Assembly: GCA_963747235.1 (NCBI GenBank)
Contig: CAVVEU010000024.1
Coordinates: 736,001 to 800,000, forward strand
DNA from: an uncultured Candidatus Rokubacteria bacterium
GTDB taxonomy: Bacteria > Methylomirabilota > Methylomirabilia > Rokubacteriales > CSP1-6
DNA length: 64,000 nt
Reading direction: 5' to 3'
The notes beneath the pieces are model-generated. The model was given only the letters and a program-made list of their open reading frames with translations. It had not been told where the DNA came from and did not search any database. The position numbers were made by a program, and so were the translations under genes. Below, piece by piece: positions 11,387 to 34,476 of this stretch (the first letter of the stretch is position 1; the number at the start of each line of letters is the position of its first letter).

Positions 11387-11561
11387 AGCGGAGGGGAGCG
11401 GGCGGGGCGGGGGCGCGGGGGTGCGGCCGGTGACTCGTTCCCTCCGGGGAACGCCTAGAGCGGCTTCCCGGATTGGGAACTCCTGCGGCGAGGTTGCGAG
11501 GGAGCGGGTCGTGGTCAGAGGCCGCACCCCCGCGCCCCCGCCCCGCCCGCTCCCCTCCGCT
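11387..11561 (-). repeat. Long-stem structured element, copy 1
   Basis: Perfect 42-bp inverted arms 11387-11428 / 11520-11561; core shares GGCCTCTGACCACGAC and GAGTTCCCAATC with the copies at 18738 and 34303. Confidence 0.9.
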
Positions 11562-11566
11562 TAACG

Positions 11567-12775
11567 CTAACTGTGTTTACGAAGCTCGAGCCGCCCGATC
11601 TGCCGGCGATGCACCTCGTCCGGCCCGTCGGCGAACCGCAGGGTCCGCGAGTGCGCCCACATGGACGCGAGCGGGAACTCCTGGCTCACGCCGCCGCCGC
11701 CGTGGAGCTGCATGGCCCGCTCCACCACGCGCCCGGTGATGTTCGGCACCGCCACCTTGATCTCCGCGATGGCCTGCCGCGCCGCCTTGTTGCCGACGGT
11801 GTCCATCATGTACGCGGCGTGCAGCACGAGCAGCCGCGCCTGGTCGATCTCGATGCGCGACTCCGCGATGCGCTCGAGCGTGATGTCGTTGTCGGCCAGC
11901 GGCTTGCCGAAGGCGATCCGCTTCGTGGCCCGCTTGCACATCAGCTCGATCGCGCGCTCGGCCACGCCGATCTGGCGCATGCAGTGGTGGATGCGGCCGG
12001 GGCCCAGGCGGCCCTGGGCGATCTCGAAGCCGCGGCCCTCGCCGAGCAGCATGTTGGCGGCGGGCACTTGCACGTTCTCGAACAGCACCTCGCCGTGGCC
12101 GTGGGGCGCGTCGTCGTAGCCGAACACGGTCAGCATGCGCACCACCTTGATGCCGGGCGCGTCGCGGGGCACCAGGATCATGGACTGCTGCTTGTACTTG
12201 TCGGGGTTCTTCGGATCCGTCTTGCCCATGAAGATGAGGACCTTGCAGCGCGGATCGCCGATGCCCGACGTCCACCACTTGTGCCCGTTGATCACGTAGT
12301 GGTCGCCCTGCCGCTCGATGCGCGACTCGATGTTGGTCGCGTCCGAGGAGGCCACCTTGGGCTCGGTCATCGCGAAGGCGGAGCGGATCTTGCCCTCGAG
12401 CAGGGGCTGCAGCCACTGCTTCTTGTCCTCCGCGGTGCCGTAGCGCTCGAGCACCTCCATGTTGCCGGTGTCGGGCGCCGAGCAGTTGAAGACCTCCGGC
12501 GCGATCGGGGAGCGCCCCATGATCTCGCAGAGCGGCGCGTATTCGAGGTTCGTGAGCCCGGCGCCGCGCTCGCTCTCGGGCAGGAACAGGTTCCAGAGGC
12601 CGCGCTCGCGCGCCTTGGCCTTGAGCTCTTCCATGATGGGAGGGATCTGCCACCGTGTCGGGCCCGCGTTGAGCTGGTCGGTGAAGACCTGCTCGTTCGG
12701 CACGACGTGCTTGTTCATGAAGTCGGTGAGCTGCTCCATGTACATCTTGGTCTTCTTCGAGTACTCGAATTCCAT
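11567..12775 (-). CDS. Acyl-CoA dehydrogenase
   Basis: MEFEYSKK..., [61 protein letters not shown]. Confidence 0.93.
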
Positions 12776-12950
12776 GTGGGCCCTCCCGGCGCCGGTGCCT
12801 CTGGTACGGTGTCCTTCGCCCCCTGACGTGGCCCCAACCCTAGGGCCGAGGCGCGCGATTGTCAACGCCTCGGCAGGGGGCCCGCGTCTGGACTTGGAGG
12901 GCCCTCCGTGGTAGAAAAATGCGAGACTTACGCGACATTCGGCGCTGACC

Positions 12951-13940
12951 ATGCTCTCGATCTCCGACACGGCTACCGAGATGGTGAACTGGGTGTTCCC
13001 GGAGCACGCGGGGGCGCCCGGGCAGATCCACGGGGGGCGCATGATGCAGTGGATCGCCACCTGCGGCACCATCGCGGCCTCGCGGGTGGCGCGGGGCAAC
13101 GTGGTGCTGGGCGCGATGGACGACATCGACTTCCTGCACCCGGTCAAGGTGGGCGAGGTCGCGGTGCTGCGGGCCCAGGTGGAGTACGTCGGCCGGTGCT
13201 CGCTCGAGGTCGGGGTGCGCGTGTACGCCGAGAAGCCCGCGACCGGCGAGCGGGTGCTCACGCTGTCCTCCCACCTCGTCTTCGTCAAGGTGGACGAGCA
13301 GATCAAGCCGCTCCCGGTGCCGCAGACGGTGGCGCCGCGCGGGCCGGAGGAAGAGGCCCTGCACGCGGCGGCGGGCGAGCGGCGCGCCCGGCGGCTCGCG
13401 CGCTTCGCCCGGCGCGCCGAGCGCATGCGCGAGGTGGAGGACGACGCGCCCGAGCAGCTCCGCTGGCGGTTCGAGTCCTGCCGGTCGGTGCTGCCCGAGG
13501 ATCTGCTGTTCGGCAACACCATGTTCGCGGGCAAGCTGCTGCAGGACATCGACGAGGCGGGCGGTATCCTCTCCATGCGGTACTGCCGGGGCCTGGTCAT
13601 GACCGCGTGCCTGGACGCGCTCGACTTCTACGCGCCGATCCAGTCGAACGAGGTCGTGACGTTCCAGGCGGGCCTCAACCACGTGGGGACGTCGTCGCTG
13701 GAGATCGGGGTGAAGGTGCTGAGCGAGGTGCCGTGGACCGGCGAGACCAAGCACGCCTGCACCGCCTACCTCTCCTTCGTGCACCTGGGCACCGATCCGA
13801 GCGCTCCGCTTCGGCCCCAGCCGTGCCGGCCCTTCACGCCCGAGACCCCCGCCGAGCAGCGGCGCTGGGTCGGCGCGCTGCAGCGCCGAGCGCGGCGACT
13901 CGAACGCGTCAAAGCTGTGAAACTATCCCTCAGCGCGTAG
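12951..13940 (+). CDS. Acyl-CoA thioesterase, double hotdog fold
   Basis: Two hotdog repeats ([12 protein letters not shown]...[24 protein letters not shown]...LDFYAPI). Confidence 0.85.
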
Positions 13941-33224: not shown

Positions 33225-33225
33225 C

Positions 33226-33672
33226 ATGAAGATCGAAGGCTCCGCCGACATTCCGGCCCCGCGCGAGAAGGTGTGGGCCGCCTTCCTCGATCCCAATATC
33301 CTGGCGCAGGCCCTGCCCGGCTGCGAGAAGCTCGAGGCGATCGGGCCGAACGAGTACAAGGCCACCATGAAGATCGGGGTCGCCGCCATCAAGGGCACCT
33401 TCGAGGGCAAGGTGAAGCTGAGCGACCTCGAGCCACCCAACCGCTACCGCATGGCGGTCGAGGGCAGCGGCGGGCCGGGCTTCGTCCGCGGCGCCGCGGG
33501 CATGCAGATGTCCGACGTGGACGGCGGCACCAAGGTGAGCTACGACGCCGACGTGCAGGTGGGCGGCCTCATCGCGAGTGTCGGGCAGCGGATGCTGGGC
33601 GGGGTCACCAAGATGATGCTCGATCAGTTCTTCACCAAGATGACCGAGCTGCTCACGTCGAAGCCGGCCTAG
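33226..33672 (+). CDS. CoxG/SRPBCC family protein
   Basis: APREKVWAAFLDP.IL...LPGC, QVGGLIASVGQR. Confidence 0.85.
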   Translation: MKIEGSADIPAPREKVWAAFLDPNILAQALPGCEKLEAIGPNEYKATMKIGVAAIKGTFEGKVKLSDLEPPNRYRMAVEGSGGPGFVRGAAGMQMSDVDGGTKVSYDADVQVGGLIASVGQRMLGGVTKMMLDQFFTKMTELLTSKPA

Positions 33673-34303
33673 CTGCTGTTCACGCTGCCCCCGCTCCTGC
33701 TGGCCGGCCTGCTCTCCATCGCGGCCGCCTCCTCGCCCCAGCCCGTGGCGGGCGACTGCGCGGGACCCGGCGGGGAGCAGCCCTCCCGCTGCCTCTACCG
33801 CTCCGCGTTCCCCAGCACCGGCCTCGTCGCCACCTGCCGCACCGACCACGACTGCAACGTCGGCTACTACTACGGCGACCCCGAGAAACCGGTCTGGCTC
33901 GACCCACCCCCGAACCAGCGGACCTTGCCGAAACCCGAAGTCATCTGGCGCGCCGCCACCTTCGCCGAGATCCGCTTCCCCTGCGGCCCCACCTGCCACA
34001 TCAGCTACTTCTTCGAAGCCAAGCGCCGCCGCCTCTCCCCCCCAAGAGATCAAACTCTGGACGTGGACCTCCGCCGCCTCCTCGTAGCCCAGGAAGACGG
34101 CAAGTCCATCGCAGTCCGCCAGATATTTTCAGGCCGAGAAGTCGCCCGCATCACCCGCGACTGGACCCCAAGCCCATCTCTCGCCAGGCATTCTCACCGA
34201 GATCCACTTCGACCCAGACGGCCGCCTCACATTCACCTGGCTAAGAAAAAACGATCGAACGCCGGTGACGGAGCGCGTGTCCATCCCCAGCATCCCACGG
34301 TAG
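33673..34303 (+). CDS. Hypothetical Cys-containing exported protein (indel near 34187; start uncertain)
   Basis: Hydrophobic N-terminus, CGPTCHISYFF; shifted frame continues GILTEIHFDPDGRLTFTW...SIPR* to TAG 34301-34303. Confidence 0.55.
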
Positions 34304-34476
34304 GCGCGCGGCGGCGCGGGCGGGGGGGCGGCACGTGGGCCGGGTGACCCGTCCCCCGCCAACGGAAGCCCGGAACCGCACGATCCCAGATTGGGAACTC
34401 TCCAGGGCACAAGACGAGTAAGCGTGTCGTGGTCAGAGGCCCACGTGCCGCCCCCCCGCCCGCGCCGCCTCGCGCC
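34303..34476 (-). repeat. Long-stem structured element, copy 3
   Basis: 39-bp inverted arms (1 mismatch) 34303-34341 / 34438-34476; core highly similar to copy 2. Confidence 0.92.

Follow-up and report, generated by a model that had tools for sequence, protein, structure and literature searches.

What kind of element is a hairpin of about 175 bp whose arms differ from copy to copy while its centre stays the same, and why does it stand just behind stop codons? The question is raised by three elements in the window, that is, the whole 64,000-nucleotide stretch of an uncultured Candidatus Rokubacteria genome analysed here. The hairpins noticed in the preliminary description proved to be real: all were recovered, with arms of 42, 37 and 39 bp carrying 0, 0 and 1 mismatches, and the longest perfect arm of the window (42 bp) compares with 12-17 bp in 20 Markov-simulated windows. 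The core, described as conserved, was seen in 3/3 copies, and every copy does start shortly after a stop codon, with gaps of 5, 15 and 22 nt between TAG and arm behind genes for acyl-CoA dehydrogenase, CsaA (tRNA_bind) and an MFS transporter. Folding of copy 2 gave a z of about -10 for the RNA and -11.7 for the DNA. We refer to the family as F1; its features in the window are as follows.

11387..11561, minus strand (core reading): F1 copy 1, between convergent acyl-CoA dehydrogenase and ABC-permease genes
11520..11561, minus strand: stop-proximal arm of copy 1, 42 bp, 0 mismatches to the distal arm, 5 nt past the TAG at 11567-11569
11387..11428, minus strand: distal arm of copy 1, 42 bp, with a T6 run next on the minus strand
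11510..11517, minus strand: block A of copy 1, TGACCACG
11471..11480, minus strand: block B of copy 1, GTTCCCAATC
11431..11440, minus strand: block C of copy 1, GAACGAGTCA
11567..12943, minus strand: acyl-CoA dehydrogenase gene (Pfam; start approximate), upstream of copy 1
18390..18722, plus strand: gene of the csaA type (tRNA_bind), upstream of copy 2
18738..18909, plus strand: F1 copy 2, arms 18738-18774 and 18873-18909 (37 bp, 0 mismatches)
18777..18784, plus strand: block A of copy 2; in relatives, IS110 copies are inserted at the CT directly 5′ of this block
18815..18824, plus strand: block B of copy 2, at the palindrome centre
18860..18869, plus strand: block C of copy 2; a covarying 5-bp helix joins its 3′ part to block A
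19000..19005, plus strand: TACACT before queA, kept genus-wide, a -10-like box as read by eye
34303..34476, minus strand: F1 copy 3, arms 34438-34476 and 34303-34341 (39 bp, 1 mismatch)
34428..34435, minus strand: block A of copy 3
34389..34398, minus strand: block B of copy 3
34345..34354, minus strand: block C of copy 3
34499..35695, minus strand: MFS transporter gene (Pfam), upstream of copy 3

The distal arm of copy 3 touches the TAG of the convergent gene (end at about 34303). The surroundings of copy 2 gave no terminator-like site, and a promoter scan returned no full promoter near the TACACT. A 5′ arm rich in G runs had been noted, but it is uninformative about orientation because inverted repeats read G-rich first on either strand; only the core is directional.

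F1 is a genome-wide family of narrow distribution. The genome of the window (G000) holds 13 copies of this short, non-coding element, 12 of them outside called genes; the other lies within a read-through tail left by the loss of a stop codon. The family was present in 20/20 genomes of the same genus, 27/93 of the same family and 0/57 from other families. Pattern matches in other phyla amounted to 34 loci (27 genomic, 7 viral) with just one weak 52-nt model hit. In viral contigs, the 7 matches to the F1 pattern and the 13 to that of F2, an unrelated core described below, were at chance level, and the MITE ends of neither were found; a search of plasmids found nothing, and none of the sequencing runs contains even half of the stretch. 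Rfam gave no match at gathering score, only generic miRNA-hairpin models at E-value level. The reading of F1 as a non-autonomous repeat family moved in trans, of which we found no earlier description, is supported.

Placement relative to genes is strongly skewed. Both neighbours were called for 76 copies; of these, 52 lie between convergent genes, 23 are co-directional in sense orientation, 1 is antisense and 0 are divergent, while convergent gaps make up only 94 of the 1050 comparable gaps in G000. The uniform orientation relative to upstream genes seen in the window extends to the family, as a sense bias of 23 to 1 after stop codons. TAG precedes 8-9 of 12 copies in G000, against a background of 33% (p 0.004-0.017), and F1 copies occupy orthologous gene ends. 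Flips were seen at 1/18 co-directional and 11/66 convergent loci; this difference is not significant (p 0.21), and the sense bias may therefore arise at insertion. G000 encodes both RNase III and Rho.

Comparisons between copies showed that conservation of the three blocks, of 8-11 nt each, far exceeds that of the spacers. In orthologous copies the blocks are 97% identical and the spacers 68%; at 4-fold sites of the neighbouring gene identity is 57-86%, and the spacers diverge like synonymous sites. The arms behave differently. Locus-specific arms persist between species, while the centre they enclose may be F1, F2 or F3, and may be flipped, deleted or absent; the F2 and F3 cores are unrelated to F1, yet are held by the same locus-specific arms at orthologous sites. 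At the csaA site, that of copy 2, 6 of 20 loci of the genus carry F1 and 8 carry F2; across other species the site has either of these cores, a flipped F2, remnants or nothing. When arms that enclose different cores at one locus are compared, the likeness score is 13.6, against 9.1-10.4 for arms of different loci (nominal p 1e-11 and 3e-6, from pairs that are not independent). Precise or partial losses are common at the loci compared, and the site of copy 3 is empty in some relatives, with no clear target duplication. It was considered whether the arms are older terminators invaded by cores, and this was rejected, as the core-less arms (L133, L127 and L537) are deletion products; in addition, the 30 csaA loci of other genera have no arms. 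The complementarity within each copy noted earlier was confirmed, but its reading as RNA covariation was not: arm mismatches comprise 17 GT/TG and 21 CA/AC, so there is no G·U bias and the pairing is probably kept by copy-correction at the DNA level.

A route of spread is suggested by relatives. In G129, from another genus, two F1 units lie tail to tail within a composite of about 480 bp, whose ends are of the IS1380 type and whose flanks read CTAG/TTAG; among 12 copies examined, 6 have both ends of this shell and 7 at least one, and the left end was found in 4/5 further copies. The same ends flank full IS1380 transposase genes (L593, and L602 in the window's own genus), the protein of L506/L593 being identified as IS1380 transposase (NF033539, E 3e-115); with an IS1380 query, no transposase was recovered from G129 or G000. 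F2 likewise forms composites with IS630-type ends in G026 and G023, sitting inside a 217-bp MITE with 88 near-identical copies in G026, and the ends of its shell are also those that bound full IS630 elements (NF033545, E 7e-78). CTAG/TTAG stands at both ends of the G129 and G026 composites. Among the 21 G026 copies for which both neighbours were called, 16 are fresh insertions that coincide with a called stop codon, nearly always at CTAG. The possibility that F1 is an IS-derived MITE family therefore holds in part, for homologues of another genus and not for the window copies: no trace of IS ends was found in 58 flanks of genus copies, where scores were at shuffle level, terminal inverted repeats resembling IS ends were absent from window and genus copies and present only in the G129 composites carrying F1, and no shells surrounded the copies inspected in G131, G137 and G077.

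On balance, we think it probable that F1 is a palindromic non-coding repeat of one family of soil Rokubacteria that was likely carried onto TAG stops as a MITE passenger and is likely retained for an action at transcript 3′ ends; it is best read as a 3′-end element of the REP/ERIC kind that MITEs would have carried about and that was kept thereafter. Miniature transposons targeting CTAG would place F1 on TAG stop codons, and the copies of this genus would have arrived in shells in the same way, their outer ends having since eroded. Recombination and copy-correction between arms would then flip or replace centres and keep the arms matched, while selection would keep the three blocks, which might bind a putative factor. 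The likeliest role would be on the mRNA, as a 35-45-bp GC stem that stops transcription, blocks 3′ exonucleases or offers RNase III a site. That F1 is retained at gene ends is likely explained by such an action, and a job at mRNA ends would likewise account for blocks that stay intact despite flips and exchanges of the centre.

A possible though less likely account treats F1 as a REPIN-like ssDNA element in its own right, with a putative nickase or recombinase reading the blocks on the extruded hairpin and moving or overwriting cores, the shells being secondary. The pure Watson-Crick arms agree with this, as do the shell-less copies in most genera, an internal loop between arm and helix P2 that is conserved and purine-rich on the non-sense strand, and 30/72 cores whose nearest neighbour lies at another locus; moreover, MITE shells also carry many unrelated repeats, so F1 may have entered them secondarily. 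IS110 elements target F1, a CT-core IS110 being inserted at block A in 3 loci, as IS621 targets REPs (PMC11208160). An enzyme of this kind was, however, not found. The absence of a cognate transposase or RT from the window extends to G000 (88% complete), where searches for Y1, RT, IS110, IS630, IS4-type and IS1380 were empty. Y1 transposase (PF01797) was found in none of the incomplete genomes G000, G026 and G023; it is present in 3/3 other genus genomes searched, and the 3 Y1 genes there have no F1 within 1.5 kb. RVT_1 was not found in G000, G026, G023, G008 and G001, and the one in G013 has no adjoining F1. In a scan of 124 neighbouring proteins, several of them without a Pfam family, mobile-element matches were limited to a weak HTH_Tnp_1, an IS1595-like fragment and a single IS110 inserted in another hairpin. 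An IS110 was also considered as mobiliser of F2 and rejected, since that beside F2 at L225 lies in a different hairpin. Finally, a DNA-only mechanism does not predict the 23:1 sense bias.

The sense bias would also suit a core that acts in 3′ UTRs as an RNA with catalytic or ligand-binding activity (a new small ribozyme or aptamer enclosed by a long stem), a reading that we regard as improbable. In its favour are P2, in which 4/5 pairs show double changes and 98% are paired, invariant nucleotides at predicted junction and loop positions, and narrow spacer lengths (first spacer 28-32 nt, second spacer mostly 33-37 nt). P2 is, however, the sole covarying helix inside the arms and the inner continuation of the palindrome, so it can covary by the same DNA process. 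The invariant GTTCCC/GGGAAC helix shows 5 G·U, 4 C·A and zero compensatory double changes; the inner core has a mean z of -0.20 in sense and +0.12 in antisense; and spacers do not pair with those of their own copy (31/61, p 0.79), which also rejected a rod model of 5′ spacer paired with 3′ spacer. Neither several covarying internal helices nor folding better than shuffles was thus seen in the core, and the ribozyme or structured-RNA idea of the preliminary description, like its small internal hairpins, found no support. Blocks kept at 97% while spacers drift and fold like shuffles argue against a ribozyme, as do three unrelated cores interchangeable at one site and the lack of an Rfam family. 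Hairpin, twister, HDV-like and hammerhead ribozymes, group II intron domain V, the tRNA T-loop and the cobalamin B12 box, judged by eye against consensus motifs, were dropped because required nucleotides or stems vary. Least probable of all is that F1 is neutral debris, its block conservation being only apparent and produced by gene conversion and the way copies were found. The frequent losses fit this, as does the use of an exact pattern to find many of the copies in alignment A3, which omits L010, L103 and three loci with truncated or low-complexity ends, L082, L027 and L095. Yet copies found through the flanking protein still have blocks about 97% identical to the consensus, conversion should homogenise the spacers as well, and neither G000 nor the other loci scanned showed long G-rich arms paired around a decayed core.

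Known systems resemble F1 in part. RUP (with IS630-Spn1 ends), Correia/NEMIS and ERIC/IRU are short, multi-copy, non-coding intergenic hairpins closed by 5′-3′ pairing (PMC2229807), as F1 is, and such bacterial MITEs have been proposed to exert orientation-dependent RNase III/RNase E effects on neighbouring mRNAs. The IS630 link of RUP is paralleled by F2 with IS630-type and F1 with IS1380-type ends. Unlike these MITEs, F1 has long arms that vary by locus, lie inside the IS ends of those copies that have them and are not transposon ends; its conserved part is an asymmetric centre, its copies are seen both within a shell and on their own, and the same arms can enclose unrelated cores. It shares with IS1380 and IS630 the ends and CTAG flanks that bound the composites in G129 (F1) and G026/G023 (F2), whereas the window copies have no such ends and the cores bear no obvious trace of transposase remnants. 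REPINs (PMC3337134) have conserved ends (two inverted REPs) around a variable spacer; F1 is the reverse, with varying ends, a conserved asymmetric centre and no linked RAYT. Like REPINs it is extragenic and forms one long hairpin, and like REP/REPIN sequences it lies at gene ends or between convergent genes with no two copies alike, is targeted by IS110-family elements and may be co-opted as a terminator. Retrons and RT-linked ncRNAs differ in that F1 has no adjoining RT in the genomes searched (the G013 RVT_1 is not adjacent), and Rfam ribozyme, riboswitch and ncRNA families in that none matches at gathering score.

The loci make the proposed life history of an extragenic repeat traceable, from IS-ended burst through shell loss and gene-end fixation under selection to reuse as a landing site of an RNA-guided IS110. 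Why REP/ERIC-like repeats are kept is now testable, because blocks, neutral spacers, swaps, flips and empty sites share orthologous loci. For RNA-motif searches there is a warning, as perfect arm covariation here most likely reflects DNA copy-correction and not selection for RNA pairing. A broader idea, which we find doubtful, is that Rokubacteria run a cassette system, with functional 3′-UTR RNA modules, whose unrelated cores would include F1, F2, F3 and more, delivered to stops by unrelated MITE shells, fixed in locus-specific palindromic landing pads and there swapped or flipped. If so, each gene could acquire a different regulatory or catalytic module at its mRNA end, and the inward-reading F1 pair of G129 would put a sense copy behind a gene in either insertion direction. 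With respect to IS110 bridge-RNA elements (PMC11208160), F1 is the target and neither guide RNA nor donor, and the left end of one IS110 copy carries guide-like segments matching the F1 junction.

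The three F1 copies in the window stood as the preliminary description had them, with arms of 42, 37 and 39 bp (0, 0 and 1 mismatches), a core common to all three, and TAG stop codons 5, 15 and 22 nt upstream, where genes for an acyl-CoA dehydrogenase, a csaA-type tRNA-binding protein and an MFS transporter end. Perfect arms in simulated windows reached 12–17 bp at most. An iterated HMM found 13 F1 copies, one of them truncated, in G000, the genome holding the window, and the genes upstream of these copies have functions unrelated to each other.

Copies of F1 in the window
11387–11561, − strand, palindromic repeat
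18738–18909, + strand, palindromic repeat
34303–34476, − strand, palindromic repeat

Parts of F1, in order
Arm: typically 30–45 bp; 67% G, <10% A+T
Small conserved internal loop
Block A: TGACCACG
First spacer (A to B): 28–32 nt
Block B, at the centre: GTTCCCAATC
Second spacer (B to C): mostly 33–37 nt
Block C: GGAACGGGTCA
Second arm

The F1 core was detected by BLAST in 20/20 genomes of the same genus and 0/40 others, and a covariance model found F1 in 27/93 genomes of the same family and 0/57 genomes of other families. Many matching database contigs were titled Rokubacteria or Methylomirabilota; some were titled other taxa despite the same gene contexts, and because of those contexts the odd titles were treated as unreliable. 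Pattern matches in viruses and other phyla were rejected as chance.

F1 is placed at gene ends. Among 76 copies with both neighbours called (non-independent, drawn from ~25 loci), 52 were convergent, 23 co-directional in sense, 1 antisense and none divergent, against a G000 background of just 94 convergent gaps in 1050 comparable gaps. TAG was over-represented ahead of F1 in G000 (8–9/12 vs 33%). Flipped copies occurred at 6 of the 11 convergent loci represented in multiple genomes, and the scarcity of flips at co-directional loci was not significant (p 0.21). In one G000 copy (L006:3909-4976), the ABC-permease stop codon ahead of F1 was lost and the frame reads through the entire element. In a relative, G131, small accessory genes (DUF433/DUF5615, transposase fragments) were flanked by convergent F1 pairs at L490, L491, L493 and L494, as if the bracketed gaps were insertion hotspots.

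Arms of the F1 type enclose interchangeable cores. Scanning the whole of G000 revealed the same arm type around two further, unrelated centres, F2 (8 copies, including two tail-to-tail pairs) and F3 (2 copies). The F2 core is ~83 nt and unlike F1; F3, present in 9/20 genus genomes, has arms enclosing a conserved 21-nt loop.

Locations of F2 and F3 in G000
F2 (L158-L163): C31:98315-98730, C2:19242, C15:63920, C40:167384-167754, C33:125130, C8:28796
F3 (L156, L157): C24:409127-409201, C40:214097-214195

At the csaA-queA site, the 20 genus loci carried F1 (6), F2 (7), flipped F2 (1), deletion remnants (3) or nothing recognisable or another neighbour (3), and no element was found at 30/30 loci of other genera. 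F1 alternated with F2 or F3 at three further sites, the swap with F3 being seen at one locus, and arms with different cores at one locus were more alike than arms from different loci. Of 18 genomes compared at the acyl-CoA dehydrogenase locus, 12 carried F1 (one copy being partial), 1 kept a remnant, 2 had nothing there and 3 had arms truncated by contig ends; the MFS locus carried F1 in 13 of 17 (2 flipped) and was empty in 4.

The best reading, and on balance a probable one, is that F1 is MITE cargo retained as a 3′-end element. In that role it may act in RNA, and G000 encodes RNase III and Rho. F2, present in 20/20 genus genomes and in one real copy outside the family (L232), reached 88 near-identical copies in the relative G026, sitting within an element of 217 bp that is flanked by CTAG and bears terminal repeats. 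These repeats also bound four ~1.15-kb metagenome elements, and both of the two proteins scanned from them were IS630 transposases. IS630 prefers TA inside CTAG. Among 21 copies of the G026 element with both neighbours called, the left end fell on a called stop codon in 12 and the right end in 5, one copy doing both, and the stops under insertion ends were nearly all CTAG. In G129, which holds at least 24 F1 copies, two F1 units stand tail-to-tail, each reading inward, within a ~480-bp element whose ends match full IS1380 elements, one from the window's own genus. The genus copies would likewise have arrived as cargo. We counted several observations against this route: no trace of IS-type ends beside the genus copies, no shells around copies inspected in three other genomes, many unrelated repeats also carried by shells, and no matching transposase in G129 or G000, with only a fragment in G026. 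IS1380-ended MITEs of Methylomirabilota genomes also carry additional families of long-arm hairpins whose cores differ (L522, L525, L526, L529, L530).

That F1 is instead a self-moving ssDNA element served by a putative enzyme has an appreciable minority chance; the preliminary description had noted no cognate transposase or RT in the window, and F1 was not linked to a Y1 transposase, an RT or any other enzyme that might mobilise it. G000 also carries two further palindromic families, one with GGGGTCAGGTCTT ends (47 matches) and one of CCCCTCACCC type (17 matches), and no Y1 transposase was found in that genome. A ribozyme or aptamer is rather improbable. Covariation was seen at ten inner arm pairs and a 5-bp helix of blocks A and C (73 aligned copies; 0/500 shuffles matched the score, which is inflated by kinship). 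A putative GTTCCC/GGGAAC helix was invariant (5 G·U, 4 C·A, 0 double changes), shuffled controls gave folds as stable as those of the inner core (121 sequences; z −0.20 sense, +0.12 antisense), and the spacers were neither structured nor pairing with each other in 61 non-redundant copies. Rfam, searched with an element first presented as undescribed, matched no family at gathering score and, at E-value level, only generic hairpin models. A selected RNA stem is expected to favour G·U, yet arm mismatches were 17 G·T-type vs 21 C·A-type (p 0.63), which suggests copy-correction between the arms at the DNA level.

Neutral debris is the least likely account, and the blocks are conserved: orthologous copies were identical at 97% of block positions vs 68% of spacer positions, and a neighbouring gene's four-fold sites showed 57–86% identity to G000. 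Same-genome copies at different loci were 57% identical, and unrelated copies 53%. In copies located via a flanking protein, blocks differed at 24 of 899 positions, a count that includes two copies twice and whose search pattern itself required part of blocks A and B. The nearest neighbours of 72 F1 cores were at the same locus in 42 cases and elsewhere in 30; thus the cores have in part descended vertically and in part been exchanged among loci.

F1 behaves like ERIC, Correia, RUP and REP elements as portrayed in PMC2229807 and PMC3337134. It differs from REPINs in lacking conserved ends and a linked RAYT, and the window's copies differ from MITEs in lacking IS-like ends. No description of F1 was found in full-text literature, largely outside subscription journals, on Rokubacteria/Methylomirabilota repeats, MITEs, non-coding RNA and insertion sequences; F1 is a variant, so far undescribed in the literature searched, of a known kind of repeat.

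F1 also serves as an insertion target. A CT-core IS110 was inserted at the arm/block A junction at three loci in two genomes, and in the sole IS110 copy with both ends, left-end segments match both sides of this junction, resembling target guides of bridge RNAs as outlined in PMC11208160, where REPs serve IS621 in the manner F1 serves IS110. The first block of F2 holds a different IS110. Insertions in F1 block A and in F2 were seen at L569, L573, L581 and L577; the IS110 copies L567, L578 and L586 target another short hairpin repeat, with 5 copies in G000.

Other repeats were observed in the window. Between an ABC permease stop and the first F1 copy, a short GC hairpin accompanies two tandem GACAACCGTTCCGAA motifs (11253-11331), and related motifs recur in relatives. 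Two paralogous genes on the − strand share direct repeats of ~81% identity (88-520 and 3068-3506). Two tandem AT-rich units of 48 nt, 96% alike at 50-nt spacing (58391-58488), just before an open frame at 58494, are possibly operator or promoter repeats.
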